Shown: positions 3,380 to 30,553 of the stretch, piece by piece | Layout of the letters: every line of letters starts with the position of its first letter | How positions within the stretch are numbered: position 1 is the stretch's first letter | Source of the DNA: Acidobacteriota bacterium | Lineage (GTDB): Bacteria; Acidobacteriota; Thermoanaerobaculia; Thermoanaerobaculales; Sulfomarinibacteraceae | DNA: 30,553 nt | NCBI GenBank assembly: GCA_030637805.1 | Contig: DAOWFV010000136.1 | Location: 1 to 30,553 of the forward strand | Direction of reading: 5' to 3' | Translations under genes and position numbers: made by a program | Notes under the pieces: generated by a model | The model's input: the letters and a program-made list of their open reading frames with translations, nothing else | Told to the model about the DNA's origin: nothing | Database searches by the model: none

Positions 3380-3466
3380 GAATTCTCAATTCTCAATTCC
3401 AACCCACCCACAAATGTGCGTGGGGCACCTGATCATTGAGAATTAAGAACTGAGAATTGAGAATTC
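3380..3466. repeat. Heptamer-armed palindrome, family 1 (TTCTCAA arms)
   Basis: GAATTCTCAATTCTCAATTC ... TTGAGAATTAAGAACTGAGAATTGAGAATTC, with inner hairpin CCCACCCAC-AAAT-GTGCGTGGG. Confidence 0.9.
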
Positions 3467-5555: not shown

Positions 5556-6614
5556 TCACTCGGCCATGCGGATCTTGCCGCGGAGCTTGGCGTATGTACC
5601 GTAGTCCACGTAGATCTGGTTCTCGTCGAGTTGCTCGCGGGTCTTGGCGGCCCGGTCCCGAGCTACCTCAATCCGTTCCTTGACGCGAAAGACAAAGGAG
5701 TCAGAACCCGCTCCGGAGCCGAAGGACGTGAGCAGTACGAGATCCTCTGGCTGGGCGATGTCGAGAACCGCCGTGAAGCCGATGGGTGAGGCTCCGGAGT
5801 AGGTGTTACCGAGCCACGGCGACAGCCAGCCGGTCTCCAGCTGCTCCTGGGTGAAACCCAGTTTCTTGCCGACACGCATCGGGAACTTGCCGTTGGGCTG
5901 GTGGAAGATGGCGTGGGCGAATTCGCCGGGTTCGAGACCGGCCTTTTCCATGATGCCGCGAGCCGAGCTCATGGTGGTCCGGAAGTATGCCGGCTCGCCG
6001 GTGAACCGGCTGCCGTGACGCGGGTAGTGCATGTACTCGCGGCGCCAGAAGTCGGGGGTGTCGGTGGTCCAGGAGTAGGTGTCCACAACCTCGGCCAGGA
6101 TACGATCCTCGTCGTTGCCGAAGATGAAGGCCGCTGCGCCGGCCGCCGCCGAGTACTCGAGGGCATCCCCGGGGGCGCCCTGCGAGGTGTCGGCGCCGAT
6201 ACCCACCGCGTACTTGACCTCGCCCGCCTTGACCAATGCCTGGGCGAGGAAGAGGCCCTCCGTGCCGGCCTTACAGGCGAACTCCAGGTCGGCGATGTGC
6301 AACGCCGGCGTCGCACCGATGGCCTCGGCGACGATGGTGCCCGACGGCTTCACCGCGTACGGGTGTGACTCGGAGCCGACGTAGAGAGCGCCGATCTCCT
6401 CCGGGTCCACACCGCCGGAGCGGGCGAGGGCGTTTCGGGTTGCCTCGACCGACATCGTGACCGTGTCCTCATCCGCCCCGGGGACCGATTTTTCGTGGAG
6501 CTGCAGCCCTTTGCGGTAGGACGGCGCGTCCGCTCCCCAGACCTTGGCAATTTCTTCGAGCTTGATGCGGCGTCTTGGAATGAAGGCGCCGTAGCCGACA
6601 ATGCCTACGCTCAT
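5556..6614 (-). CDS. Hydroxymethylglutaryl-CoA synthase, archaeal type
   Basis: [22 protein letters not shown] (catalytic Glu), EFACKAGT (catalytic Cys), [13 protein letters not shown] (catalytic His), [15 protein letters not shown]; 352 aa; GGAGG RBS. Confidence 0.93.
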
Positions 6615-6670
6615 GGGTCCTCCAGGTGTTGAGATCGGGTCGCCTGTCGCGATATTCGCGCAGCCGAATA

Positions 6671-6699
6671 AGTCTACACAGGCGGAATAATAGTGTAAA
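6671..6699 (-). promoter_or_regulatory. Sigma70-type promoter for the HMG-CoA synthase operon
   Basis: Minus strand TTTACA-N17-TAGACT, 57 nt upstream of the HMGS start codon. Confidence 0.6.
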
Positions 6700-6716
6700 G
6701 CCGGCCGCGGGCCGCT

Positions 6717-6886
6717 TCAGGTCTCAGGTCTCAGGTCACAGGTCTCAGGTCACAGGTTACAGGTCGCACTGAAATTTCGATTGAATTCCTGCAATGTCAA
6801 CTGTTCTATTCCCTTTCTATACCTCTCATTCGTGACCTCCGCGCTTGCAAAAACCTGAAGCCTGAGACCTGTGACTTGCGACTTGC
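6717..6886 (-). repeat. Family 2 element (TCAGGTC arms, conserved core), reverse orientation
   Basis: About seven TCAGGTC/ACAGGTC units at 6717-6766 and inverted CCTGAAG-CCTGAGA-CCTGTGA-CTTGCGA at 6853-6886. The reverse-strand core TTGACATTGCAGGAATTCAATCGA...GTGCGAC matches the copies at 15025 and 26480. Confidence 0.85.
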
Positions 6887-6929
6887 TATGACCGGAGACG
6901 GTAGAATCGGTCCCCAGTGGAGGTGCGGG

Positions 6930-8240
6930 ATGAACCAGCGCGACATGAGGGGTGGTAACTACGCGGCGGAGCTGCAGTCTCCGGAAACCTATCGAGATCG
7001 CCGTCGACGGCTCGCGGAGCGAGTGGGCTCGGGCACTGTGGTGCTGTGGGGGGCGGGAGATGACCGGGGTTATGGAGACGTCGGTACCTTTCGACAGGGT
7101 TCGAGTTTCTTCTACCTCACGGGTGTCGAGCTCCCGAACGCAGTCGCGGTGCTACGCCCCGAGGAAGGAGGGGATCTCCTTTTCCTGCCGCCGCGCAACC
7201 CCAACATAGAGCGTTGGACGGGGCCAAAGTGGGGGCCGGGAGAGGAGGCGGCAGCTGCCTTCGGTTTCGACGAGGTGCTGTCTACGGAGGCAACGGAGAC
7301 TGTGATTGATGCGCGCCGGCGGCCGGTGCCGGGACTCGAGGGGCGGCTCCATGGGTGGTTGGCCGAGCCCGGCGCCGTTCTGTGGACCGAGCTCCCGGCC
7401 GTTTCCAGCGGCGCCGAGCTTCCCCCAACACACCGTTTCGTGGCGAAGCTGCGCGACCGGCTGCCGACCTTTGAGGTTCGCGATCTGGGCGAGCACCTGA
7501 CCGCCCTCCGTCTAGTCAAGGATGATGGGGAGATCGGACTCATGAGGAGGGCGATGGCTGCCACGATCGAGGGTCACCGTCGGGCCGCTCGGTCCGTGTC
7601 GCCGGGGGTCAGCGAGGGGGCGGTCGACGGAGCGGTCTACGCGGCCTTTCGAGAGTCCGGTGCGGAGGGTCTTTCCTTCCCCACTATCGTCGGTTCGGGC
7701 TACAACGCCACGACCCTCCACTACGATCAGAACGCCGGAACCTGCCGTGACGGTGAGCTGGTGGTGGTGGATATCGGGGCGCGCTACGGCTACTACTGCG
7801 GAGATCTGACCCGGAGCTATCCTGTGAACGGCCGTTTTTCGAAGCGTCAGCGCGAGATTTACGAGCTCGTGCTCGAGGCGCATGACCGCGCGGCAGAGGC
7901 CATCCGACCCGGCATCACGATGTCCGAGTTGCGTAAGATCGCGTTCGGCGTGATCGAGGGTTCGGACCTTCGCGATACGGAGGGCGAGCCGCTAGGGCAG
8001 TACTTCATCCATGGACTCGGCCACTTTCTCGGGCTCGACGCTCACGACCCGGGCGGTGACGAGGTAGTCCTTGAACCGGGGATGGTCATTACCAACGAGC
8101 CCGGCATCTACCTTCCCGAAGAGGAGCTTGGGGTACGCATCGAGAATGATTTCGTGGTCACCGCCGACGGCGGCGAAAACCTCTCCGCTGAGCTGCCGAC
8201 GAGCATCAGTGACGTGGAAGAGATGATGCGCCAGGAGTGA
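6930..8240 (+). CDS. pepP: Xaa-Pro aminopeptidase (M24B)
   Basis: FFYLTG..P N-domain; VDIGARYGYYCGDLTR, HGLGHFLGLDAHD, EPGIY and GVRIENDFVVT metal-binding motifs; GGAGG before ATG 6930 and TAGAAT at 6902. Confidence 0.9.
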   Translation: MNQRDMRGGNYAAELQSPETYRDRRRRLAERVGSGTVVLWGAGDDRGYGDVGTFRQGSSFFYLTGVELPNAVAVLRPEEGGDLLFLPPRNPNIERWTGPKWGPGEEAAAAFGFDEVLSTEATETVIDARRRPVPGLEGRLHGWLAEPGAVLWTELPAVSSGAELPPTHRFVAKLRDRLPTFEVRDLGEHLTALRLVKDDGEIGLMRRAMAATIEGHRRAARSVSPGVSEGAVDGAVYAAFRESGAEGLSFPTIVGSGYNATTLHYDQNAGTCRDGELVVVDIGARYGYYCGDLTRSYPVNGRFSKRQREIYELVLEAHDRAAEAIRPGITMSELRKIAFGVIEGSDLRDTEGEPLGQYFIHGLGHFLGLDAHDPGGDEVVLEPGMVITNEPGIYLPEEELGVRIENDFVVTADGGENLSAELPTSISDVEEMMRQE

Positions 8241-8255
8241 AGCGCAGACCAGAGC

Positions 8256-8580
8256 ATTAGGAATTCGGAATTCGGAATTAGGAATTAACGGCGCGGGGAG
8301 GCGACCGAGTGGCTCAAAGTGTTGTGCCCGCGCTGGGGCACTCTCGGGGCGCGCTCCGGCAGAAGGTCGCGACACCTTTCAGAAGCGCAAATCCGTAGCT
8401 TTGGAACACGCGACGATCTGGAGTACTCGTACCCTCCGGGCGCCAGTACCCCGCCGACGGTAGCGGTTTGTTGCCGCACCCGGCGAAATTGAGAATTGAG
8501 AATTGAGAATTGCAGATCGAGCTATCTCCGATTTGGGCAAGCGTCCTTAACTCAAAACTCAAAACTAAGAACTCAAAACT
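8256..8580 (+). repeat. Family 3 composite element (TTCGGAA/TTAGGAA left arm, conserved GC-rich core, AACTCAA right arm) plus an internal AATTGAG array
   Basis: Arrays at 8256-8287, 8487-8512 and 8549-8580. Core 8289-8347 is 49/59 identical to the reverse complement of 13766-13824. Confidence 0.85.
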
Positions 8581-8637
8581 CCTCGCAGGGAGTCCTCCGC
8601 GAGGTTCCCGAGCTCCGACAGCGATATACTCCGGATA

Positions 8638-13627: not shown

Positions 13628-13684
13628 CCCGGACTACTCACCAGCTTCCTGCCGCGGCCAATTTCGCTGCCGTAGGCAGGCGTC

Positions 13685-13851
13685 GAGTTTTGAGTTCCGA
13701 ATTTGTGGCGCTCGCAAGGGTGCGGTGAACTGCTGACTCCGAGGCGAAATCTCTTCTATCGCGCGCCGAGAGGGCACCAGCGCGGGCATGACGCTCCGAG
13801 CCACTCGATCGCTTCGCCGCGCCGAAAAATTCGAAATTCGAAATTCGAAAT
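13685..13851 (-). repeat. Family 3 element, reverse orientation
   Basis: GAGTTTTGAGTT at 13685 and (AAATTCG)x3 at 13828-13851 abutting the trmB stop. The core shares CTGCTGACTyCGAGGCGA, GGGTGCGGTGA and CGCGCCGA with 22239-22502. Confidence 0.82.
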
Positions 13852-14876: not shown

Positions 14877-14925
14877 GGCACGAGAGTATAACGCGCGACG
14901 CCGGACGATTCACGAGGTGCCTGTG

Positions 14926-15123
14926 TCAGGTCTCAGGTCTCAGGTCTCAGGTCACAGGTCTCAGGCTACACAGGCTTCAGGTATCAGGTCTCATTGAAAA
15001 ATTCATGAAAGTTGCAGAAAAGGCTTGATATCGCAGGAGTACAACCGATGATTCGGTTGCGACTTGCGATGTGCGCCCTGAGACCTGAGACCTGCATCCC
15101 AATTCCGAATTCCGAATTCTCAA
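14926..15123 (+). repeat. Family 2 element with an abutting AATTCCG array
   Basis: TCAGGTC-type units at 14926-14993. Segment 15015-15099 is 74/85 identical to 26470-26554 and includes the inverted CCTGAGA units. AATTCCG-AATTCCG-AATTCTC follows at 15101-15121. Confidence 0.9.
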
Positions 15124-15149
15124 CCCCTCATTCGTTCTCTCCTGTAGAG

Positions 15150-16973
15150 CTACTGTTTTCCGTTCCCCATCTGGGCTTCCCATGCGGCGCGGTAGCGGCC
15201 GTCGGCAGCGAGGAGCTCCCGGTGGCTGCCCGCCTCGACGATGTGGCCCTTGTCGATGATATGGATGCGGTCGGCGTGCATGGCGGTGGTGAGGCGATGG
15301 GAGATGAGGATCACGGTGCGATTCTCGGCCAGTCGCCTCAGGGACCGCACCCACTCGACCTCCGCCCAGGAGTCCATGGCCGCGGTCGGCTCGTCCAACA
15401 GGAGCACCGGCGAGGCGCGGAGAACCGCGCGAGCGAGTGCGATCCGCTGCCACTCGCCGACGCTGAGCTCGGCACCGCCGGAAAACCAGGTACCCAGAAG
15501 GGTGTCGAGACCGCCGGGAAGGCTCTCGACGATTTCGGTGGCCCCCGCCGCTGCCAACGCGTCGGCGAGATCGGTTTCCCGGTGGTCGAGGCCAAGGTCG
15601 CCGAGAAGAATGTTCGTGCGGGCCGTCTCGCTGTAGTGCACCGGCTCCTGGAAGAGGACCGTGACCATTCGCCGGAGATCCTCGACCCGGAGATCTCGAA
15701 GGTCGATTCCGCCCATCTCCACACGACCCTCCTGGGGGTCGTAGAGGCGGCACAGAAGCTTGAAGAGCGTGCTCTTGCCGGCACCATTGACCCCGAGCAG
15801 AGCCACGATGGACCCCGCGGGGATCTCGAGATTGAAGGCTGAGAGCACGGGCCGCTCCGAGGCGGGGTAGGAGAAGCTCACCTGGCGGAAGTGGATGGAA
15901 GGGGGGAGGGGCGCGGGCGGGGGCAGCGGGTCGGTGGGATCGACGATTTGCGGTTCGATCGCCAGGAAGCCGAAGAGGTTCTCGAGGAAGAGGGTATTCG
16001 CCCAGATCTGTCCCACCGTCTCGAGCAGAGATCGCGTCAGCCGCTGTCCCTGGCTGAAGGCCTGGAAGAACATCGCCAGCTCGCCGAGCGAAACCGAACC
16101 GCTGAGCGTTCGGACCACCATCCACACCAGCAGGGCGCCCGTGAGGGCCAGGGCAAAACTGCCCGCCGCCATCTCTGCCAGCGCCTCGGAGCGGGTGAGC
16201 TCGAGGCGCTCCCTTCGCAGGCGCCTCCGGACCCGCTGGAAGGCATCCGCGAAGTGCGGCCCGACACCGAGCAGGCGCAACTCGGGGGCGGTTTCGCGGG
16301 TGCACAGCAGCCAGTCGTAGTACCAGGTGCGCCGGGTGTCGGGGGTCGCCTCCACGGTCCATCGACGGTGGCGGATAGCGTAGCGGGCGACAACCGCGAG
16401 CGCCGGCGCGGTGCTCAGCACCAGGGCGGGGGGTACCCACCAGCCGAAGGGGGCGAGCACCGCCGCCATGGCCGCCAGGGTGAGGGTGTGCTGGAGGAGG
16501 GCGCCGATGTTCTGCACCAGGGTCACCGGCCGCTCGTGCGAGTCGACCCGGGCGCGGTAAAGCCGGTCGTGATAGTCGGGGGACTCGAAATGGGCGAGAT
16601 CTGCTGCGATCGCCCGGCCGTGGATCAGGGCACTCACATGGTCCCGCACCAGCTCGGCCTGGGCGGTGCGTACCCAGCGGGTGGCGGCGCGCATGAGCTC
16701 GCCGAGAAGAAGCAGCCCGGCCATGATCCCAGCCGGGAAAAGGACGCTCTGGACCTGATCCCAGGAGGCGCCGGCACCTGCCGTCGCCGCCAGGCGATCC
16801 ACCAGGACGCGTGTCAGAAACACCAGGGCGACGGGAAGCAGGCCCTGCACCACCAGGAGAACCAGCCACGCCATGGTCCACCAGCGGGCGGCGTCCCACA
16901 CCAGCTGCAGCGCCCGCGGGATGTAGGGCAGCTGCCCGCGCGCGTTGGCGATCAGTTCACCGACTGCGGTCAC
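15150..16973 (-). CDS. ABC exporter, fused transmembrane and ATP-binding domains
   Basis: N-terminal hydrophobic helices; Walker A GVNGAGKS, Q-loop LFQEP, signature LSVGEWQR, Walker B LLLDEPT, H-loop ISHR; GTG start. Confidence 0.93.
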   Translation of the reverse strand: MTAVGELIANARGQLPYIPRALQLVWDAARWWTMAWLVLLVVQGLLPVALVFLTRVLVDRLAATAGAGASWDQVQSVLFPAGIMAGLLLLGELMRAATRWVRTAQAELVRDHVSALIHGRAIAADLAHFESPDYHDRLYRARVDSHERPVTLVQNIGALLQHTLTLAAMAAVLAPFGWWVPPALVLSTAPALAVVARYAIRHRRWTVEATPDTRRTWYYDWLLCTRETAPELRLLGVGPHFADAFQRVRRRLRRERLELTRSEALAEMAAGSFALALTGALLVWMVVRTLSGSVSLGELAMFFQAFSQGQRLTRSLLETVGQIWANTLFLENLFGFLAIEPQIVDPTDPLPPPAPLPPSIHFRQVSFSYPASERPVLSAFNLEIPAGSIVALLGVNGAGKSTLFKLLCRLYDPQEGRVEMGGIDLRDLRVEDLRRMVTVLFQEPVHYSETARTNILLGDLGLDHRETDLADALAAAGATEIVESLPGGLDTLLGTWFSGGAELSVGEWQRIALARAVLRASPVLLLDEPTAAMDSWAEVEWVRSLRRLAENRTVILISHRLTTAMHADRIHIIDKGHIVEAGSHRELLAADGRYRAAWEAQMGNGKQ

Positions 16974-17177
16974 GGTCCGAGCCTAGCAGAATCCGAGCCC
17001 ATGCCCGTGCCCGTCTCTGTGCCCGATGTTCAGGAGCGCGCTACCGATTTCATCGTGACCTTTCTATCGGCCCTCTGCCCGTGAGGATGCCAGGCACCTC
17101 CGAACGATTGTGCCCACACCCCCAAAATTGTCAGGGACGGCACGCCCGAAGAAGCGCGCGGTCCATCGCTCCAGGGG

Positions 17178-17293
17178 CGCGCTTCTGATAGGTGACGCGG
17201 CCATTTTTTGTCGCGCCCCGGCGCGGGCATTTAGCCTCGAGCCGCTCGATCGCCTTCGCGCGCCGACAATTCCGAATTCCGAATTCCGAATTC
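17178..17293 (-). repeat. Family 3 element (partial), reverse orientation
   Basis: (AATTCCG)x3 at 17268-17293. The reverse-strand core CGGCGCGCGAAGGCGATCGAGCGGCTCGAGG...TGCCCGCGCCGGGGC and CACCTATCAGAAGCGC match 8289-8388. Confidence 0.82.
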
Positions 17294-17375
17294 AACCCAC
17301 GTCCGCGTCCGCGCCCGCGTCCGTTCCCGACAACTCGCCTTGACGAACCACCGATCGCTGCCGCACGATAGAGGC

Positions 17376-18500
17376 GTGACCAACCAAACTCCTAAGGGCG
17401 AGCGCCCGCAGAAAGGCGCCTGGATCGGACTCCTCTTTGCGCTGGCGGTTTGCACTGCAGTCGTGGTGATGGTGCTGGCCCCCTTTTTCTCGGTAATTCT
17501 GCTCGCGGTGGTGGCGGCAGGGTTGATCCGCCCTTCCTATCTCGAGCTGGTGCGCGCCTTTCATGGGAGGCGACGCGCTGCGGCCGTTCTCATCTGCGTT
17601 CTTCTTCTCGTGGTTTTGTTGGTGCCCGTTTATCTCATTGCTCAGGAGGTATCGGAGGAAGCCCTCGCCATATACGAAATGAGCACCACTCAGCTGACCC
17701 AGGGACGACTGATGGAGATTCTCGAAGGGCGCCAGCACCAGATCGACCGCGTCAACCGGTTTCTTGAGCCCTTCGGCACCGAGCTCACGATAGAGCGAGT
17801 CTATGACCTCCTCGCCACCTTTGGCGTTCGCATCGGCGGTTTCTTTTACAAGCAGGGCGTGTCGGTGGCCGGACACCTGGTCCGCTTTGTTTTTGGATTC
17901 GTCTTCTGGGTTCTAATTCTCTATTACCTTCTCATAGACGGTGGTGCCTTCCGGAGTTGGGTCGAGGCCACCCTTCCTTTGCCCGTGGATGAGCAGAAGC
18001 TCGTGTCCCACCGATTCATGGACATGGCGTCGTCGCTGGTAATCGGGAACGGGGTTGCCGCCATCATCCAGGGCATTGCGGGCGGTGTCATCTTCGGACT
18101 CCTCGGCATCCCGGGCGCAATCCTGTGGGGCGTCGTGATGGCCATCCTGGCCTTCATCCCGGTGGTCGGGATTTCGCTGGTGTACATCCCGTTTACCATC
18201 TTCCTGCTGATCGCCGGCGAGAACACCCGCGCCCTCTTGCTCTTCATTCCACTGGCGGTGGTAGCGACTGCGGTGGAGTACTGGTTGAAACCGCTCCTGG
18301 TGGGGCGGCGGGCGCAGATGCATACCCTGCTGGTCTTTCTCTCGCTGATCGGCGGCGTCATGGCTTTCGGGGCGGTAGGCCTCCTGCTGGGGCCGCTGAT
18401 GATGACCGCTTTTCTGACGCTGGCCGGGATCTACCGTGAACATTACCGTCCGTTCGCAGGTGAACCCTGCGTGGAGAAGGGTGAGAACCAGACCGGCTAG
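17376..18500 (+). CDS. AI-2E family transporter (PerM/YhhT-like)
   Basis: Multi-pass hydrophobic protein; ILYYLLIDG, LAFIPVVG, LKPLLVGRR..MHTLLVFLSLIGG..AFG..GLLLGP; GTG start chosen at 17376 (TTG at 17340 possible). Its stop overlaps the convergent bactofilin stop (CTAG). Confidence 0.92.
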   Translation: MTNQTPKGERPQKGAWIGLLFALAVCTAVVVMVLAPFFSVILLAVVAAGLIRPSYLELVRAFHGRRRAAAVLICVLLLVVLLVPVYLIAQEVSEEALAIYEMSTTQLTQGRLMEILEGRQHQIDRVNRFLEPFGTELTIERVYDLLATFGVRIGGFFYKQGVSVAGHLVRFVFGFVFWVLILYYLLIDGGAFRSWVEATLPLPVDEQKLVSHRFMDMASSLVIGNGVAAIIQGIAGGVIFGLLGIPGAILWGVVMAILAFIPVVGISLVYIPFTIFLLIAGENTRALLLFIPLAVVATAVEYWLKPLLVGRRAQMHTLLVFLSLIGGVMAFGAVGLLLGPLMMTAFLTLAGIYREHYRPFAGEPCVEKGENQTG

Positions 18501-18997
18501 CCTGCCGGGGATGATTCTTTCGCAGAGGCCTCCGCATCCTTACGCGCGCTGGAGGTCGTCACGGTGCCTCGCGCGCTCGGCTCTTTCATCAAGACCTGAC
18601 CTTTGAAGGTGGCGCCGTCCCTGATCAGGATGCGCGGGGCGGTGATGTTGCCCTCGACGAAGGCCGACGGCTCGAGCTCGATGCGCTGGCTTGCGGAAAT
18701 ATTGCCCTTCACACGTCCGGCGACAATGACGTTCCGTGCATGAACCGTCGCCTCCACGCCCCCGTGCTCGGCGATCTTCACGGTTCCGGTTCCCTCGATT
18801 GCGCCGTCGATCTCGCCGTTGATGACGATCTCACCCGAACCGAGGATCCGACCCTCGATCCGGGTCGGACGCGCGATTACGGTTCGACTATCGCCGTCGC
18901 CCGGGGTTGCCGAAGTTGTCGGTCGCTGATCGGTCCTGGCGGCCGGCCGGGTCGCCGAAGGTGCGGGGGATTGGTCGTCGCGTCCGAAAATGCCCAT
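18497..18997 (-). CDS. Bactofilin (polymer-forming cytoskeletal protein)
   Basis: TVIARPTRIEGRI...VINGEIDG...ARNVIVAGRVKGNI...EGNITAPRILI..GATFKG beta-helix repeats; ATG at 18997 with GAGG upstream. Confidence 0.93.
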   Translation of the reverse strand: MGIFGRDDQSPAPSATRPAARTDQRPTTSATPGDGDSRTVIARPTRIEGRILGSGEIVINGEIDGAIEGTGTVKIAEHGGVEATVHARNVIVAGRVKGNISASQRIELEPSAFVEGNITAPRILIRDGATFKGQVLMKEPSARGTVTTSSARKDAEASAKESSPAG

Positions 18998-19070
18998 ATC
19001 ACTGTTCCTCGCTAGCCGGCCCGGAAAATCATGAGCTGGCGTCACCGATTATCCGGATAAGATGGTGGTT

Positions 19071-19146
19071 TGGAGCGGGCAACGGGACTCGAACCCGCGA
19101 CATTCAGCTTGGGAAGCTGACACTCTACCAGCTGAGTTATGCCCGC
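19071..19146 (-). tRNA. tRNA-Gly (anticodon CCC)
   Basis: Reverse strand GCGGGCA-TA-ACTC..GGTAGAGT-G-TCAGC-TTCCCAA-GCTGA...GCGGGTTCGAGTCCCGT-TGCCCGC-T-CCA; 76-nt cloverleaf, U73 discriminator, encoded CCA. Confidence 0.97.
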
Positions 19147-19226
19147 CCAAACGGAGCCCGACATTACCACAGGGCCTCTTGCCCAGGCAAGGTTCTCCGA
19201 GACACAAGCAGCTGTTTTCCAGGCAG

Positions 19227-19243
19227 TTGGTACGAGCATTGCT
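19227..19243 (+). promoter_or_regulatory. Sigma54 (-24/-12) promoter upstream of the pilin-like gene
   Basis: TTGGTACGAGCATTGCT versus consensus TGGCACG-N4-TTGC; exactly 10 nt separate GG from GC. Confidence 0.65.
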
Positions 19244-19256
19244 TGTCTTGGATTCC

Positions 19257-19718
19257 ATGCCTGCTCGCGGCCCATCCACGCACCGCGGTTTTTCGCTCAT
19301 TGAGTTGCTCATCGTGGTTGCGATTCTCGGCATGATCGCCGTGATAGCGATACCCAACCTGATCAATACCATCCAGCGTTCGCGCCAGAGCCGTACGATG
19401 GCCGAGATGCGGGTCTTCGGCGAGGCGTTGGAGATGTACCAGCAGGACAACAATATCTACCCGTGGGCGGCGGGGGCCGTCCCTGCCGACGTCTTGCGTC
19501 CATTTCTCTCCGTTTATATACGCAACATCACCTTAGTCGACGCCTGGCAGCAGCCCCTGCTGTACTCGAGCAACGGGACTCGCTACACCGTCGTCTCTTA
19601 CGCGGCGAATGGTGCTGCCGACCTCCCGTACACAAACGGGCCGACCCAGCGCTTTGTCTCGGACATCGTCCTCTCCGGTGGGACCTTCGTCCAGTGGCCT
19701 GAGGGTGTTCAGTACTGA
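19257..19718 (+). CDS. Type IV pilin / type II secretion pseudopilin-like protein (GspG-like)
   Basis: Prepilin cleavage/methylation site RG|FSLIELLIVVAIL with E5; IAIPNL; DAWQQPLLY resembling the GspG DPWG.PY.Y motif. Confidence 0.9.
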   Translation: MPARGPSTHRGFSLIELLIVVAILGMIAVIAIPNLINTIQRSRQSRTMAEMRVFGEALEMYQQDNNIYPWAAGAVPADVLRPFLSVYIRNITLVDAWQQPLLYSSNGTRYTVVSYAANGAADLPYTNGPTQRFVSDIVLSGGTFVQWPEGVQY

Positions 19719-19777
19719 CGCTAAGCGTCATTCCCCGTCGAAAGGAGTGGCGTCGAGGGGCATCGGCGGAAGCGGAG

Positions 19778-20971
19778 TCAGATGGAATAGAGCACCTCGC
19801 CGCTGCCGATTCCGCCGCCCACGCAGCGGCTGGTGACACCGACCCGCTTTCCACGCCGGCGCAGCTGGTGAACCATGTCGACGACCTGACGCGCTGCGGT
19901 GCAACCCACCGGGTGGCCGAGGGAGATCCCGCTGCCCCAGAGATTGGTTCTGTCCCGAGGCAGGTCCGGTAGGTCGTGAAAGGCTGCGGCCAGAACGGCC
20001 GCAAAAGCCTCGTTGAGCTCGAAGAGATCGACCTCTCCGATGCCGAGGCCGGCGCGCTCGAGCAGGGGAGGAATGACCTTGAAGGCGCCTTCGCCCATGT
20101 ACTCGCGCTCCACCCCGACGTTGTAAAACGCATTGAGCTCGGCGAGCGGGTGTAGACCCAGCTCGGCGGCCCGTTCCTCACTGGTCAGCACGACTGCCGC
20201 TGCGGCGTCGTTGACGCTCGAAGCGTTGAGAGCGGTGATGGTACCGCCGTCTCGTTTGAAGTACGGTCGGGCTGCCGCGAGCTCTTCCATGGTTAACGGT
20301 CGCGGCCCCTCGTCACGTTCCACGATCTGTGGATCCCCGCGCCGTTGGGGAACCTCCACGGGCACAACGTAGTCGCCGAAGGCCCCCTCCTCCCATGCCT
20401 TCAACGCGCCGTGATGGCTGCGGAAGGCGATCTCGTCCTGCTCCTCGCGGGTGAGGCCGTATCGGTCGACCAACCGCTCGCTGAGCAGACCCATGAGCTC
20501 GCCGTCACCGACGTTTGCGTCTGTCAGCGCACCAAAGAGCCCGTCGACCAGGGTCATGTCGCCATAGAGCTGGCCCTTGGTCCGTCCGGTGAACAGGAAC
20601 CTGGGCACGTTGCTGAGAGACTCGACGCCGCCGGCGATTCCCAACGACACCTCGCCGAGCATGATGCGGCGGGCGAGACTGTGGATCGCCGCGCCGCCCG
20701 AGGCGCAGTTCTCGTGGAAGGTGGTGCCGGGAGAGCTGCTCGGGACCCCCGCGAACTCAGCCGCAGTCTTGGCGAGGTTGGGTGAGCGCGGGTCCTGCAT
20801 CACCCAGCCCATGCAGGTGTACTCGACCAGCATGGGATCGAGGTCCGTGGACTCGAGCAACGCTCGAATGATGATGGTGGCCAGCTCGCGCGCCCGGAGT
20901 GGGGCGAGACCTCCTCCCAGGGCGCCGATCGGGGTCCTTACCGCTCCGGCGATGACGACCTTCGTAGTCAT
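19778..20971 (-). CDS. Acetyl-CoA C-acyltransferase, classical thiolase
   Basis: AVRTPIG, NCASGG (Cys), GGVESLS, NEAFA, GHPVG, RCVGGG (second Cys); AAGGAGG RBS before ATG 20971. Confidence 0.93.
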   Translation of the reverse strand: MTTKVVIAGAVRTPIGALGGGLAPLRARELATIIIRALLESTDLDPMLVEYTCMGWVMQDPRSPNLAKTAAEFAGVPSSSPGTTFHENCASGGAAIHSLARRIMLGEVSLGIAGGVESLSNVPRFLFTGRTKGQLYGDMTLVDGLFGALTDANVGDGELMGLLSERLVDRYGLTREEQDEIAFRSHHGALKAWEEGAFGDYVVPVEVPQRRGDPQIVERDEGPRPLTMEELAAARPYFKRDGGTITALNASSVNDAAAAVVLTSEERAAELGLHPLAELNAFYNVGVEREYMGEGAFKVIPPLLERAGLGIGEVDLFELNEAFAAVLAAAFHDLPDLPRDRTNLWGSGISLGHPVGCTAARQVVDMVHQLRRRGKRVGVTSRCVGGGIGSGEVLYSI

Positions 20972-21048
20972 GTGATACCTCCTTCTCGCTTCAGGAATCG
21001 TACGCCCGACCTCACGCCGCGTCCAATTCAATGCGCGAGATCTACGGG

Positions 21049-22197
21049 TCAGGGCTTCGGCGGCTGGGCCAACGAAAGGACGAGGTCGGTGAAGAGGGCG
21101 AGTCGTGGCGGAAGGCAATCGATGACAATGGATTCGTCGGGTTGGTGGGCGCCTTCTCCCACCGGCCCAAGGCCGTCGATGGTCGGGGCCCCCACGGCCG
21201 CGGCGAGGTTAGCGTCCGACGAACCGCCCCAGCGCACCCAGCCGAGGTCGAGGCCGAGGCCCTTGCCGATCTCCCGTGCGCGGTCGAAGAGCTCGAGGGT
21301 GGCTGGTGAGGCCTCCATCGGTGGCCGGTTCCAGCCGCCGGAGAGGTGGATCTCGCTGCCGGCAAGCGTTGGTTGCAGTGCATGAAGAGCGGTGGTCAGT
21401 CGCTCGGTTTCGTGCTCGGTCCATGCCCGCACATCGACCCGAATCTCAGCCCGATCAGGGACCATGTTGCTTGCGGATCCGCCCGTGATGACGTTTGGAC
21501 CCACGGTGGTTCCGAGGGCGGGATCTTCGAGTCCGAGGATAGCCAGAATCTGGTGTGCGGCCTCGACCACAGCGTTGATCCCGCGCTCCGGTTCGACCCC
21601 CTGATGGGTGGCGCGGCCTCGGATGTCGACGATGAACTCGCCGGAGCCCTTGCGCGCCAGCTTCAGACTGCCCTCGAGATTCGTCGGTTCGAGGACGAGG
21701 ACGAAGTCTGAACGCCGCGCCGCTTCCTCGATGAACCGGCGCGACCCTGGCGCCCCGACCTCTTCATCAGGGGTGAGCAGCATCTCGAGATGGGGGTGGG
21801 AGTGACCCGATGCGTCGAGATAGCGCAGCAGCCACGGAATGAAAAGCAGGCCGCCCTTCATGTCGTAGACCCCGGGGCCGTACGCTCGTCCACCCTCGAC
21901 CCGCCACAGACTCGGCCACGATCCGATCGGCCAGATCGTGTCGTAGTGAGCGAGGATCAGGATCCTGGCGCCGTTGCCGCTGCGAGTGAGGCGCAACACC
22001 GGACCATGCTGCTGCAGGTTTTCGCGCTCGAGACGACCCAACGAGGCCAGGCGATCGGCGAGGAATTCGGCCGCTTCCTGCAGATTCGTCAGATTCCCGG
22101 AAGGGGTCTCGATGGCGGTCAGAGCCTGCAACTCGACCAGGTAATCCTGCAGGTGGCCGGCGAAGAAGTCGAGACTCTCCATGAGCCGGGCGATCAC
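21049..22197 (-). CDS. M20-family metallopeptidase (glutamate carboxypeptidase-like)
   Basis: LAHYDT, GPGVYDMKGG, PDEEVG, LVLEP, GGSSDAN, DGLGP.GEGAH; AAGGAG 7 nt before GTG 22197 (ATG 22182 is an alternative). Confidence 0.92.
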   Translation of the reverse strand: MIARLMESLDFFAGHLQDYLVELQALTAIETPSGNLTNLQEAAEFLADRLASLGRLERENLQQHGPVLRLTRSGNGARILILAHYDTIWPIGSWPSLWRVEGGRAYGPGVYDMKGGLLFIPWLLRYLDASGHSHPHLEMLLTPDEEVGAPGSRRFIEEAARRSDFVLVLEPTNLEGSLKLARKGSGEFIVDIRGRATHQGVEPERGINAVVEAAHQILAILGLEDPALGTTVGPNVITGGSASNMVPDRAEIRVDVRAWTEHETERLTTALHALQPTLAGSEIHLSGGWNRPPMEASPATLELFDRAREIGKGLGLDLGWVRWGGSSDANLAAAVGAPTIDGLGPVGEGAHQPDESIVIDCLPPRLALFTDLVLSLAQPPKP

Positions 22198-22238
22198 ACA
22201 CCATCTCCTTGACGGAATCAAGAGGCGGAAGAGAAGAG

Positions 22239-22502
22239 AGTTCTCAGTTTTGAGTTCTTAGTTTTGAGTTACGGGCGCCCTGCGGGTGCGGTGACCCACC
22301 GCCGTAAGCGGGTGGCCCGCGATTGGGCGCGTTCCGGCGACGGGCTGCTGACTTCGAGGCGACCTTCTATCGTCGCGCGTCCCGAGAGGATGCCAGGGAC
22401 CTTCGAAGTAACGCGCCCAAGCGCGGCCGACATGCCCCGAGGTCCCCAGTCGCCTCCTCGCGCCGATAATTCCTAATTCCTAATTCCTAATTCCCAATTC
22501 CT
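22239..22502 (-). repeat. Family 3 element, full length, reverse orientation
   Basis: AGTTTTG/AGTTCTT array at 22239-22271 and (AATTCCT)x4 at 22468-22500. Reverse-strand core CGGCGCGAGGAGGCGA...CCGCGCTTGGG...CTCTCGG...AGAAGGTCGC. Confidence 0.87.
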
Positions 22503-22531
22503 CGCGCCCTATGGGCGCCGCGAGGGCCGTG

Positions 22532-23371
22532 TCAGCTTTCCCCCCGCCATGCCGGGAGTCTGATGATGAAAGTGCTGCCTTCGCCGAGGGTGCTCTCCAC
22601 CTCCAGGGTGCCGCCGAAGGCTTGCACCAGCCGGCGGCAGACGGCGAGACCGAGGCCCGAACCCTGCCGTCGCTCGCCCGGCTCGCGGTGGAGTTGGGCG
22701 AACGCGTGGAAAATCTCATCGATCCGGCCCTGGGGGATACCGACACCGTCGTCCTCGACCTCGAGCACGACCGTGTCCGCGTCCACCCGCGCCTTGAGCC
22801 CGAGGTGGCCTCCCGCCGGCGTGAACTTGACGGCGTTGTCCAGCAGGCGACGCAGCACCTCCCGCATGCGCCCGGCGTCGACCATGACGGCGGGCAGCCC
22901 GGGGGCGACCTCGGCAGCCAAACCGAGACCGCTGCGATCGGTGATAGCACGCGTCTCCTCCATGACCTCGTCCACTAAAGGCTCGATCTCGACCGGCGCG
23001 AGGTCGAGCTGGAGGTTGCCGGTCTCGAAGGCGGAGAGATCCACCATGTCGAGAATCAGGTGGCGCAATCTCAGAACACTGTCGTAGACGATATGAAGAA
23101 ACGAGAGCTGTTCTTCGGAAAGACCCTCGGTGAGGTCCGAGAGGATGATTTCCAGGTAGCTCTGGATGATCGTGAGCGGGGTCTTGACCTCGTGGGCTGC
23201 GGCGGAGAGGAAACGACCTCCGGCCTCCTCGATCTCAGCCAGCCTCTGCTGAAGTGCCTCCACCTCGCGGGTGCGCTCCTTCAGGGTCTGGTGCAGCGCC
23301 GCCACGTCGGACGGCGAATCCGCCTCCTGTGGGGCGTTGTCGGGGTGGGGCAGGGGACGGCGTGCTACCAT
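22532..23371 (-). CDS. Cytoplasmic histidine kinase (HisKA + HATPase) lacking a sensor domain
   Basis: AAHEVKTPLT, LLDNAVKFT, EDDGVGIP, GSGLGLAV; the N-terminus is only a short coiled coil. Start is ATG 23371 or TTG 23383. Confidence 0.9.
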   Translation of the reverse strand: MVARRPLPHPDNAPQEADSPSDVAALHQTLKERTREVEALQQRLAEIEEAGGRFLSAAAHEVKTPLTIIQSYLEIILSDLTEGLSEEQLSFLHIVYDSVLRLRHLILDMVDLSAFETGNLQLDLAPVEIEPLVDEVMEETRAITDRSGLGLAAEVAPGLPAVMVDAGRMREVLRRLLDNAVKFTPAGGHLGLKARVDADTVVLEVEDDGVGIPQGRIDEIFHAFAQLHREPGERRQGSGLGLAVCRRLVQAFGGTLEVESTLGEGSTFIIRLPAWRGES

Positions 23372-23484
23372 CGGTTTACTCAACTAGGACGCCCCGAGTA
23401 TACGGGGTGCCGGCTGATTCTCGTAGCGGGGTGGGCGCGATTCGCAGGGTGCAACCGAAGGTCAATTCGGCGGATGCGAGGTGG

Positions 23485-25329
23485 ATGAGCGCCTCATCGA
23501 GGTGCTCTGCCCAGACCGGCTGTCGCTTTTCTCGAAGGGCTGGACAACGAGTCGGGAATCTCGTTGTGGCCTGCCTGCTCCTGGTCCCCGCGGTGGTGTG
23601 GTGCGCCGAACGCGACCCGCGGATCATCGACATCTCCTTTGAGCCGCACGGCACGATCCGCTGGGAACGTGGAGGGCATCCGGTGCTCCTCGTGGTCCCG
23701 AGATCGGGTGAAGGCTGGATCACCCTGGCGCAGCGCCTCACCGGCAGCCAGGCTACGGTGGGGTCGCTGCGGCGCGCGAATCCTCGTCTCCAAGCGCCGC
23801 TCCGTGACCGTCCCGTACGGGTGCCGGTGGAGATCCTGCGCGGGGATCTCCGGCTCGACGCGGTGCGACGGCTCTTCCCGGTGGACAAACGAACGGTCCT
23901 GGGCTGGCAGCACTGGATCCTCGACCCGTTCCGTGATGGCGAGGGGGAGGAAAGTTGGGAGTGGTTGGCCGAGCTCTTCACTGGGAGGACAGACCTGGCG
24001 GGAGATCTCAAGAGGACCAACCCGGAGCTTGTCGCCACAGGGCTGAAACGCGGGCGTCCGCTAATCATCCCGGAGGCGCAGCTCTTGGGCGTCTTCAGCT
24101 CGCTGACACCGGTGGCGACCCCTACACCGGTCGCCACGCCCACGCTGCCGCCCGTTTCCACGGTCGTGCCCTCACCGATGGTCGCCCCCCGCCCCGACGG
24201 CGGCGGCCCCCTCGACTACGGCGTCGACCGATTCGGTGAGTACGCGATCTACCGGCTACAGAAGGGCGAGGCGCTGTACTCGGCGGTGGTCGTGCGGTTC
24301 ACCGGGCAGCTTCTCGCCAGACAGGTCAACGAGACCGCAATGACGATCGCCCGGCGCTCGGGCATCGATGATGTCACCGATATTCCGGTCGGGTATCCCG
24401 TCAAGATCCCCTTCGAGCTGCTGCTCCCGGAATACCTTCCGCCCGACAACCCGCGTCGCCTGGCGTGGGACGAGGGAAGGCGCGAGCTGGCGCACTTTCT
24501 CGAGGTGGTCCATGCGACCGACCTCTCCGGCGTGCAGGTGGTCCTCGATGCGGGGCACGGCGGAAAGGACACCGGTGCGGTCGTGAACGGCGTCTGGGAG
24601 GCAACCTATGCCTACGACATCATGTGTCGGATCAAGGCGAACCTCGAACGCCATACCCGCGCTACCGTATGGACCACCATCGAGGACGCGAAACGCGGCT
24701 GTACGACCCCTCCGCTGGACAGGCTCGAGCAGAGCCGTGACGCATTCCTCCGGACCCGGCCCCCGTACCGGCTCGATGACGCGGTGCTAGGGGTCCACCT
24801 GCGCTGGTACCTCACGAACGACATCATCCTCAACCGGCTCGATTCCAGCGTACCGCGTTCGAAGACGGTCTTCCTCTCGGTGCACGCAGACTCTCTCCAC
24901 CCGAGCGTGCGCGGCGCGATGGCCTACGTACCGTCCAGGTACCTGCGTCCGACAAAGCCATATACCGTCAGACGCCGGGACATCCAGCGGTTCGCCGAGT
25001 ATCGAAATCACCCCACGGTTCGCCTCGGACCCGAGTTCAAGGCGCGGGTCGAGGCATCTTCGCGGCACATGGCTGAAAGAATCCTGGGCAGCCTCGAACG
25101 AAACGAGATCGCGATCCACCCCTACGATCCAGTCCGTGACCGGGTTCTCCGCGGTCGGCGGAGCTGGGTGCCGGCGGTGTTGCGATTTACCGCGGCCCAG
25201 AATGCGGTGCTCCTGGAGTGCTGCAACATGGCCAACGAGCAGGATCGCTCCTTACTCCTGGAGCAGGAGTGGCGGGAGCGCTTCGCGCGCGCTGTGGTCG
25301 AGGGAATGGCGTCAGCGTTTTCGAGATAG
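23485..25329 (+). CDS. N-acetylmuramoyl-L-alanine amidase (Amidase_3) with N-terminal LysM-like modules
   Basis: VLDAGHGGKD, GVWE, FLSVHAD and AVLLECCN zinc/catalytic motifs; signal-like segment; T/P linker; ATG 23485 follows GAGG (start uncertain). Confidence 0.88.
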   Translation: MSASSRCSAQTGCRFSRRAGQRVGNLVVACLLLVPAVVWCAERDPRIIDISFEPHGTIRWERGGHPVLLVVPRSGEGWITLAQRLTGSQATVGSLRRANPRLQAPLRDRPVRVPVEILRGDLRLDAVRRLFPVDKRTVLGWQHWILDPFRDGEGEESWEWLAELFTGRTDLAGDLKRTNPELVATGLKRGRPLIIPEAQLLGVFSSLTPVATPTPVATPTLPPVSTVVPSPMVAPRPDGGGPLDYGVDRFGEYAIYRLQKGEALYSAVVVRFTGQLLARQVNETAMTIARRSGIDDVTDIPVGYPVKIPFELLLPEYLPPDNPRRLAWDEGRRELAHFLEVVHATDLSGVQVVLDAGHGGKDTGAVVNGVWEATYAYDIMCRIKANLERHTRATVWTTIEDAKRGCTTPPLDRLEQSRDAFLRTRPPYRLDDAVLGVHLRWYLTNDIILNRLDSSVPRSKTVFLSVHADSLHPSVRGAMAYVPSRYLRPTKPYTVRRRDIQRFAEYRNHPTVRLGPEFKARVEASSRHMAERILGSLERNEIAIHPYDPVRDRVLRGRRSWVPAVLRFTAAQNAVLLECCNMANEQDRSLLLEQEWRERFARAVVEGMASAFSR

Positions 25330-25558
25330 ATTCACCCGCCCGCGGCGCCCGGTCATGGCAACCGCACCCGATGTTCTTCTGAGGCGCCTTTGACAATCAA
25401 CACAACCTCCTGCTATCGCGCTCCCCGAGGGAGCCCCCTTTGAGGTTTTGGGACTCAGCGGTGTTCTTTCCTCGGCGTGGCTGCTCCCAAAACCATCAAA
25501 GACGGCACGCCCGGTCAAGAGCGCCCACACCTGAGATCAGCCGGCCGCAGAGCGCGGG

Positions 25559-25585
25559 TAACTAAGAACTAAAAACTCAAAACTA
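25559..25585 (+). repeat. Isolated AACTCAA-type heptamer array (family 3 right arm)
   Basis: TAACTAAGAACTAAAAACTCAAAACTA, the same units as at 8549, 22239 (reverse) and 27938. Confidence 0.8.
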
Positions 25586-25698
25586 AACCCCCTTTCCCCG
25601 TGTTGGTGCTCCGGGTCACGTTCAACGCCTTGCGTGCGGCATCGACGCGACCCACATTAGAGGTAGGGAAGCATATCGATCGCTCGGAGGGAGGCGTC

Positions 25699-25992
25699 AT
25701 GAGGTCCTACCTTGTATTGACAGAGAACGGTCCTCTCCTCGTGATGACCTCCCGTTCGCGCATCACCGAGGATGCCCTCCTCGAGTCACTGCACCGAAAA
25801 GGCATCGACAAGTTCATCGCCTACGAGGTGCCGGTGGACAGGGTTCACGAGTTCTACGGCCTTCCCTTCGAGGTGATCGCGGCCGACCTCGACCAGGGCA
25901 AGGAGATGAGGGTCCTCGACTTTGACGGCCGCCACATCTTCGACTGCCTCTCTCTCGCTGAGCTCGGCCAGGAGATTCATTTCGAGCATTGA
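25699..25992 (+). CDS. Conserved hypothetical small protein, 97 aa (paralog 1)
   Basis: GGAGG RBS; 53/97 identical to the next gene (KFIAYEVP, EVIAADL, RVLDF.G.HIF). Confidence 0.85.
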   Translation: MRSYLVLTENGPLLVMTSRSRITEDALLESLHRKGIDKFIAYEVPVDRVHEFYGLPFEVIAADLDQGKEMRVLDFDGRHIFDCLSLAELGQEIHFEH

Positions 25993-26041
25993 GCCCGGTT
26001 CACGGGCTACAATGAGAAGCCGACTCAGGATTGGGGGTCGA

Positions 26042-26347
26042 ATGCGCGCCTACATCATCTTCTCCGGGACCGGTCCGATCCTCGTTCTCACCACATACCC
26101 CGCGCTCACCGACAGACGATTGATCGAGAAACTCGCCCACAAGGGAATCGGGAAGTTCATCGCATACGAGGTTCCGACCCCGCGGGTGCATGAGATCTAT
26201 GGTGTGCCCTACGAGGTGATTGCCGCCGATCTCGAGATCGCTGAAGATCTCCGTGTCCTGGACTTCAACGGCCATCACATCTTCAGCTGCTTTTCGTTTG
26301 CCGAGCTCGGAGACCCGATCAAATGCGGCGACGGTCAGGCGGGTTGA
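26042..26347 (+). CDS. Conserved hypothetical small protein, 101 aa (paralog 2)
   Basis: Tandem paralog of 25699-25992; TACAAT at 26008-26013 suggests its own promoter. Confidence 0.85.
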   Translation: MRAYIIFSGTGPILVLTTYPALTDRRLIEKLAHKGIGKFIAYEVPTPRVHEIYGVPYEVIAADLEIAEDLRVLDFNGHHIFSCFSFAELGDPIKCGDGQAG

Positions 26348-26381
26348 ACACCTGCCCGGCAGATACTCGATTCCACCCGCT

Positions 26382-26554
26382 TCAGGTCTCAGGGATCAAG
26401 TCACAGGTCTCAGGCTTCAGGTCTCAGGCTTCAGGTCTCAGGCTTCAGGGTTCAGGTAGCAAAAAGATCCAGAAAAAACTTGACATCGCAGGAGCCCAAC
26501 CGACGATTCTGGTGCGACTTGCGATGTGCGACCTGCGACCTGAAACCTGCATCC
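26382..26554 (+). repeat. Family 2 element
   Basis: About ten TCAGGTC/TCAGGCT-type units at 26382-26457, core TTGACATCGCAGGAGCCCAACCGA, then inverted CTTGCGA/CCTGCGA/CCTGAAA units. Confidence 0.9.
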
Positions 26555-26606
26555 AGCATCCGGCTTCGCCCTTTGGGCTACGCCGTGACAAGTCCAGCAT
26601 CTCGAT

Positions 26607-27858: not shown

Positions 27859-27976
27859 GAATTAGGAATTAGGAATTCGGAATTCGGAATTACCGGCGCG
27901 GGGAGGCGGCCGGGCTGGTTTGGGGCCGGGTGCCCGTAACTCAAAACTCAAAACTAAAAACTCAAAACTGAGAACT
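27859..27976 (+). repeat. Family 3 element, short form
   Basis: AATTAGG x2 and AATTCGG x2, then CGGCGCGGGGAGGCG (identical to 8289), a short core, GGGTGCCCG and an AACTCAA array at 27938-27976. Confidence 0.88.
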
Positions 27977-30465: not shown

Positions 30466-30480
30466 GGCTGTCACCCTACG

Positions 30481-30553
30481 CGATACTCGATACTGGATTC
30501 TCGATAATCGATCCGGCCACCGACCTGATTCTCGATACTGGATACTCGATTCC
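30481..30553. repeat. Heptamer array of a fourth sequence type (GATACTC/GATACTG/GATTCTC), truncated by the window edge
   Basis: CGATACTCGATACTGGATTCTCGATA ... GATTCTCGATACTGGATACTCGATTCC. The final 13 nt GATACTCGATTCC also occur at 26362-26374. Confidence 0.8.

Follow-up and report, generated by a model that had tools for sequence, protein, structure and literature searches.

In several bacterial phyla the intergenic DNA is full of paired arrays of tandem heptamers, a general class of repeat that is known but unexplained. Xanthomonas genomes each carry 70-75 convergent inverted (GGGAATC)n array pairs, which are poorly conserved between species and of unknown function (Rehm et al., PMC4692102), and heptamer repeats have also been described in cyanobacteria and Beggiatoaceae (PMC4679880). 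A family of repeats that joins such arrays to a conserved core, here called family 2, is found on the 30,553-nt contig DAOWFV010000136.1 (the window; contig C2 of its genome). The contig belongs to G000, a Candidatus Sulfomarinibacter metagenome-assembled genome (MAG) of 1.93 Mb in 264 contigs (65% complete, 65% G+C). A first-pass annotation of the window had placed copies at 14926-15099 (+), 26382-26554 (+) and 6717-6886 (reverse strand), and all three are present there (copies 1, 2 and 3, respectively). The family probably consists of lineage-specific, non-autonomous foldback repeats of the miniature inverted-repeat transposable element (MITE) or repetitive extragenic palindromic (REP) doublet (REPIN) type, with arms made of heptamer arrays and a portable sigma-70-type promoter between them. 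Multiplication in one lineage, neutral placement between genes and independent change in arm length are all observed, and a copy present in one strain can be inverted, replaced by another family member, lost or represented by a core-less hairpin in a closely related strain.

As in the Xanthomonas (GGGAATC)n pairs and the cyanobacterial short tandemly repeated repetitive (STRR) sequences, the family-2 repeats are intergenic tandem heptamers, often in opposite-strand pairs able to form stem-loops or cruciforms. They differ from both in having, between the arrays, a conserved core (~90 nt) that shows promoter features and defines the family, and in falling into subfamilies. In addition, family-2 elements invert and are replaced between strains, their host is acidobacterial and their unit is not G-quadruplex-forming. 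No paper linking Sulfomarinibacter with repeats was found in the literature. The new features are the conserved promoter-like core, the gene-preceding cousins in sister species and the strain-level inversion and cassette replacement, and the family adds testable core, rearrangement and nesting features to the class.

Correia elements of Neisseria are promoter-carrying MITEs with fixed 26-bp inverted ends and a TA duplication. Family 2 is likewise small, non-coding, high-copy and intergenic, with inverted ends predicted to form hairpins in transcripts and candidate promoter elements brought next to genes, but its ends are variable heptamer arrays, no duplication is definable and no transposase family is linked to it. 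Expansion within one lineage as dispersed, hairpin-forming intergenic doublets is also seen in REPINs and the bacterial interspersed mosaic elements (BIMEs) built from REPs. REPs, however, are fixed palindromes of 20-40 nt accompanied by a single-copy REP-associated tyrosine transposase (RAYT) gene, whereas no Y1 transposase was found in G000. The invertons of Bacteroides and others share with family 2 a promoter flanked by inverted repeats and the occurrence of both orientations at one locus, but the family-2 repeats are long arrays rather than short specific sites, and many copies face no gene start. Foldback (FB) transposons of Drosophila have inverted repeats composed of tandem short units in variable number, have a loop that is variable or absent and promote rearrangements. 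They serve as an analogy only, being eukaryotic, far larger and built from other units, and no homology is expected.

Copy number and distribution of family 2

The two forward copies align without gaps at 74/85 positions (15015-15099 and 26470-26554), and re-alignment gave the same result. The reverse-strand copy is a true member of the family, as shown by its significance in a single-query nhmmer search (E-value: 1.4e-6), with the family profile (E-value: 4.4e-17) and with the covariance model R1 (E-value: 3.4e-13). The family is far larger than the three copies first described: iterated nhmmer and R1 agree on ~70 core-bearing copies in G000. The true number is higher than this because many copies lie at or near contig ends, where the repeats break the assembly. 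Copies are small (~150-300 bp), dispersed and without a conserved open reading frame (ORF), and those in G000 are strictly intergenic and show no orientation bias.

Metagenomes that contain the source stretch are from cold seeps and marine sediments and span 14 studies. In four metagenomes, each from a different study, copy-bearing bins are 10-40x deeper in summed contig depth than unique bins, an excess that agrees with a high copy number and to which other organisms may contribute. Contigs from four DNA runs end at every heptamer array in the 20 kb compared, and none bridges an element. The repeats account for fragmentation of the MAG, in which many contigs terminate in them. At 6614-6930, the corresponding public scaffold (L088) has a run of Ns exactly inside the right arm of copy 3, indicating that the arrays also defeat scaffolding.

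Outside G000, R1 finds four matches in G011 (one of them strong) and two weak ones each in G012 and G007, and none in the other 20 of the 24 genus genomes. A class-wide search with the model found no copies in 150 genomes, a strict core pattern gave 0 matches across one genome per GTDB species, and no family-2 copies were found in plasmids and phages. One family-2 copy in G011 is located between AATTCTC and GAATTGA arrays. The gap between the tadA-like and ABC transporter genes, which holds copy 1 in the window, contains other heptamer arrays and repeats in sister species, and no family-2 element. The possibility raised with the first description, that the copies are a few regulatory sites all conserved at orthologous positions in relatives, therefore fails, there being ~70 copies and none in this gap of the sister species. 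The family is lineage-specific and nearly confined to one species.

Arms, folding and the promoter-like core

Each element consists of a left array (TCAGGTC/TCAGGCT), an A-rich linker of which there are at least three subfamilies, a core with the consensus GCTTGACATCGCAGGAGTCCA...GGTGCGAC and a right array (GCGACCT/GAGACCT, sometimes GCGATGT) that is the inverted complement of the left one. The arms had been described as heptamer arrays of variable copy number, and Tandem Repeats Finder (TRF) indeed reports period 7 on both sides of each copy. Among 101 complete copies from G000 and metagenome contigs, the left arm has a median length of 56 nt (range: 21-156 nt) and the right arm 49 nt (range: 21-133 nt). 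Left and right lengths vary without correlation (r = 0.00), and the elements have no fixed terminus. Unit usage is systematic by side, with CAGGTCT and CAGGCTT on the left and the complement of CAGGTCG and CAGGTCT on the right.

Folded as single-stranded DNA, 76% of the complete own-genome copies have z < -2 (median: -3.8). In the window, the whole-element fold gives z = -5.6 for copy 1 (arms paired), -2.5 for copy 3 and 0.1 for copy 2, the arms of which pair poorly. Nine core-less hairpins with family-2 arms were also found. These data bear on the idea that family 2 consists of REP-like structural elements with no promoter role, in which the hairpin acts in RNA (3'-end protection, termination or RNase III) or in DNA (protein binding) and TTGACA...GCAGGA is a binding or cleavage site for a mobilising enzyme or nucleoid protein. 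Most copies do fold far better than shuffled sequence and many lie just beyond gene ends, one of the nine core-less hairpins occurs where another strain has the full element, and an IS200-like Y1 transposase is found inside a heptamer hairpin in another strain. Nevertheless, some copies (e.g. copy 2) hardly fold, arm lengths are uncorrelated, the hexamers and their spacing are kept across species rather than a palindrome or contiguous site, and the cousins discussed below sit upstream of gene starts, which makes this explanation quite unlikely.

The core has the form TTGACA, 16 nt, RAYRAT and is directly preceded by an A-rich tract. The first hexamer is exact in 52/70 copies, and the spacer is 16 nt in 56/70. 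The second hexamer is GACGAT, AACGAT or GACAAT, in which A2, A5 and T6 are each at least 90% conserved. The motif TTGAyATyGCAGGA, originally reported as invariant, varies: one subfamily has TTGACATCCAGGA. A better interpretation of this conserved motif is the -35 box of a putative sigma-70-type promoter, and a transcript starting ~7 nt past the -10 hexamer would begin at the junction with the right arm (GGTGCGAC). On inspection by eye, TGGTGCGACTTGC was rejected as a sigma-54 site, its GG-to-GC spacing being 10 nt, not 12. A peptide-coding reading was likewise rejected because the start codon is not conserved.

A structured-RNA reading of the core was dropped as well. RNAalifold predicts three trivial pairs in 33 cores (-0.68 kcal/mol; 0 compensatory changes), and Rfam has no match at the gathering threshold or E <= 1. 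With neither a conserved core fold nor an Rfam match, the earlier suggestion of a small RNA carrying a motif for protein binding or cleavage finds no support in its original form. The same two results stand against a related proposal, in which the elements are small RNA genes whose right-arm RNAs pair with left-arm arrays in the untranslated regions (UTRs) of mRNAs to form a trans-acting antisense network. The predicted start at the right-arm junction and the complementary left and right arrays beside ~70 genes are what such a network would require. The right arm (21-133 nt), however, lacks both a terminator and a defined 3' end, and the systematic difference between left and right units amounts to about one mismatch per heptamer. 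It is very improbable that the family functions in this way.

The weak matches in G007 and G012 are cousins of family 2 with (CAGGATT)n and (CATCCTG)n arms. Their core is TTGACA-N16/17-TACGAT (or GATGAT or GACGAT) followed by YTCGNTGC, a pattern that occurs in 10 copies in G007, G009, G012, G013 and G022 (reversed control: 0). The cousins keep both hexamers, the spacing, YTCGNTGC and the inverted arms, and their spacer sequences are unrelated. A strong co-oriented ORF starts 49-110 nt after the core in 6/10 cousins; by sequence reading only, the N-terminus of one of these downstream ORFs is RuvB-like and that of another is DnaG-like. Because the hexamers and spacing are fixed, the spacers are free and gene starts lie downstream, the cousins appear to bear the signature expected of a working promoter.

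Directly after two cousin cassettes (L234:1540-1600 and L235:1540-1600; G007 and G009) there is no gene; in its place both have a similar short stretch with a hairpin (TGCATCAC..GTCCA.GACAG), which may be a shared non-coding transcript.

Differences between strains and nesting

The copy-1 locus was compared in seven independently assembled contigs with an identically encoded tadA protein. Four have the arrangement seen in the window, and in three the element is inverted (different samples and assemblers). In the inverted form, the inner ~105 nt are 96% identical in reverse complement, the flanks are collinear and the core points into tadA-trmB. Orientation follows the strain haplotype, the difference being one between strains and not within one sample. 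An assembly artefact was rejected as the cause, as the perfect arm repeat is only ~18 nt, well below read or k-mer length, and the inverted sequence is the same in three assemblies and has arm units and flanking single-nucleotide polymorphisms (SNPs) of its own.

A pattern scan of Joint Genome Institute (JGI) metagenome contigs found 77 cores at 58 loci, most of which derive from a single, well-assembled sample of a second strain. Twenty-one orthologous sites at which both flanks map to G000 (mostly 97-99% identity) were compared. Orientation is the same at 11 of these (core identity: 78-96%). It is opposite at four, where the cores are 62-75% identical; random family pairs average 72%. Because this identity is no better than that of random pairs, the four sites hold different family members. 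At the other six sites G000 has no core: one (contig C12) is a 420-nt deletion that includes non-element DNA, another is a core-less hairpin and a third is occupied by an element of another heptamer-armed family. Different repeat families appear to have been exchanged, as a single site with ~98-99% identical flanks holds a GAGTTTT/TAATTCC-armed element in G000 (C246:2529-2861) and a family-2 element in the other strain (L138:10126-10590). A second assembly of the same strain has a copy-2 left arm that is 28 nt shorter, a difference that could be due to assembly collapse.

A promoter-like core between inverted repeats, present in both orientations at the copy-1 locus and directed into tadA-trmB when flipped, is at the sequence level what would be expected of programmed phase variation, with the elements as invertons and their heptamer arrays as the recombination sites at which a dedicated invertase acts, turning adjacent genes on and off within a population. 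The opposite orientations at four further loci and the absence of orientation bias, which fits a snapshot of switches, point the same way. Such a system is improbable, however. The copy-1 orientation tracks strain haplotype with no mixture seen within one background, and the four other loci hold different family members rather than the same core flipped. Furthermore, 27% of copies lie between convergent genes, where there is no gene start to switch, and housekeeping loci such as tadA, maf and the HMG-CoA synthase operon flank the elements. No invertase is linked to the elements, although a recombinase link was not searched for, and arms of this length would suffice for ordinary homologous recombination.

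If family 2 instead consists of non-autonomous foldback repeats, as preferred here, changes in arm length would arise by replication slippage, and inversion and replacement in either orientation would occur by recombination or gene conversion through the arms. Recombination of this kind is proposed because all copies share arm homology and the two arms of an element mirror each other. The core would fire transcription into the right arm, adding a promoter where a gene start lies past the arm, as in the sister-species cousins, and producing antisense or non-coding RNA elsewhere. If active, the core would supply uncultured sediment Acidobacteriota with new or antisense promoters and allow gene regulation to diverge quickly among strains. 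A possible but unlikely extension is that the elements are genus-wide promoter cassettes between self-complementary arrays, flipping and copying between loci via universal homology without a site-specific invertase. If so, recombination-driven promoter shuffling would rewire or phase-vary the transcription of ordinary genes.

Family 2 is also found nested in a second repeat. A classical MITE of 175-177 bp with the ends GCCCGCATATCTCACC occurs in at least 43 full copies in G000, most of them TA-flanked on both sides. In at least four complete cases a family-2 element, joined at a shared junction, takes the place of the MITE centre, and the arrangement occurs near 14/70 cores. The shared junction suggests that the composite spreads as a unit; part of the spread of family 2 would then be hitch-hiking inside the 176-bp TA-flanked MITE. 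A 145-aa IS200-like Y1 transposase gene with terminal hairpins adjoins trmB in the second strain (strain B; L086:3340-4030 and L087:1320-2010). It sits in (AATTCTC)n/(GAATTGA)n arms, not family-2 arms, and the equivalent site in the window has a different heptamer-armed element (13680-13851).

Several observations weigh against the preferred reading, with regard to both mobility and promoter function. A clean inversion is seen at one locus only. No strong arm pair encloses an ORF in the 1.93 Mb of G000 and 0.46 Mb of strain-B contigs, and no Y1 transposase (PF01797) was found in G000, which is 65% complete. Neither a target-site duplication nor a clean empty site is definable: ends cannot be placed within the arrays, and the sole "empty" site (C12) is the larger deletion described above. 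With no duplication defined, formal assignment to the MITEs is not established. In this species the -10 hexamer is a weak one (3-4 of 6 positions), and only copy 1 of the window copies passes the threshold of the promoter scan (TTGATA-16-GATGAT; 9/12). Across G000, the predicted transcript faces a co-oriented gene start in 23 cases and a gene 3' end in 35 (genome-wide neighbour counts rest on crude own gene calls). Because 3' ends outnumber gene starts, most copies cannot serve their neighbours. The original proposal of a non-autonomous mobile element thus stands in part: the copies are high-copy, intergenic, orientation-neutral, nearly restricted to one species, strain-polymorphic and nested, but the searches turned up no ORF-bearing copy, transposase link or target-site duplication.

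Window copies, gene context and neighbouring repeats

Table 1. Family-2 features in the window and examples of the classical MITE from elsewhere in G000
Feature	Position	Strand	Remarks
Copy 1 left arm	14926-14993	+	~9 TCAGGTC/TCAGGCT units; TRF period 7, 9.4 copies
Copy 1 A-rich linker and promoter-like core	14994-15058	+	R1 match 14971-15070, E-value: 4.2e-25
Copy 1 predicted hexamers	-35 TTGATA 15025-15030; -10 GATGAT 15047-15052	+	16-nt spacer; promoter scan 9/12
Copy 1 predicted start	near 15059	+	Predicted from the core
Copy 1 right arm	15059-15094	+	GCGACTT, GCGATGT, then CCTGAGA units; outer CATCC after
Copy 2 left arm	26382-26457	+	TCAGGTC/TCAGGCT units
Copy 2 linker and core	26458-26512	+	R1 match 26427-26525, E-value: 2.2e-22
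Copy 2 predicted hexamers	-35 TTGACA 26480-26485; -10 GACGAT 26502-26507	+	16-nt spacer
Copy 2 right arm	26513-26549	+	Short and divergent; outer CATCCAG units at 26550-26561
Copy 3 left arm	6852-6886	-	GCAAGTC, ACAGGTC, TCAGGCT units
Copy 3 linker (alternative subfamily) and core	6769-6851	-	R1 match 6756-6871, E-value: 3.4e-13
Copy 3 predicted hexamers	-35 TTGACA 6800-6795; -10 GAAATT 6778-6773	-	16-nt spacer; towards HMG-CoA synthase operon
Copy 3 right arm	6717-6768	-	GACCTGT/GACCTGA units, 7 copies
Classical MITE examples	C10:1776-1951, C10:5913-6088		Outside the window

Copies in G000 are found between tandem genes in 25 cases (10 co-oriented with the genes and 15 opposite), between convergent genes in 13 and between divergent genes in 10. 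Within the window, where the genes were checked against Pfam, the divergent, tandem and convergent contexts given by the first-pass annotation hold, and its conclusion that the elements are not simple terminators is right. Copy 1 is located between the start of the tadA-like deaminase gene and the stop of the ABC transporter gene, and points at the end of the latter. Copy 2 is in a convergent arrangement, with a pair of small unknown genes on one side and the end of maf on the other. The Maf ORF had no exact protein match, probably owing to a differently called start codon. Copy 3 lies between the HMG-CoA synthase operon and the divergent aminopeptidase P gene, with its core pointing into the operon; the promoter scan shows that this operon also has its own TTTACA-17-TAGACT site.

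Two further features occur beside copy 1. A TATACT sequence 9 nt upstream of the tadA start codon (14877-14905, - strand) is conserved in sister species, and tadA may be expressed from its own promoter as a leaderless or near-leaderless mRNA. On the other side of the element, an (AATTCCG)n array (15095-15125) has one unit more in run X6 (at 15100) and one fewer in the second strain. This array is common to the orthologous gap of two sister species.

The window contains a number of other intergenic elements with heptamer arms, at 579-678, 3381-3465, 8256-8581, 13680-13851, 17268-17293, 22238-22502, 25560-25587, 27859-27969 and 30477-30550. Despite the 65% G+C content of the genome, their units are AT-rich (AATTCTC, AATTGAG, GAATTAG, AACTCAA, AAATTCG, TAATTCC and GATACTC). 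The whole MAG contains 784 period-7 arrays, among which approximately eight units dominate.

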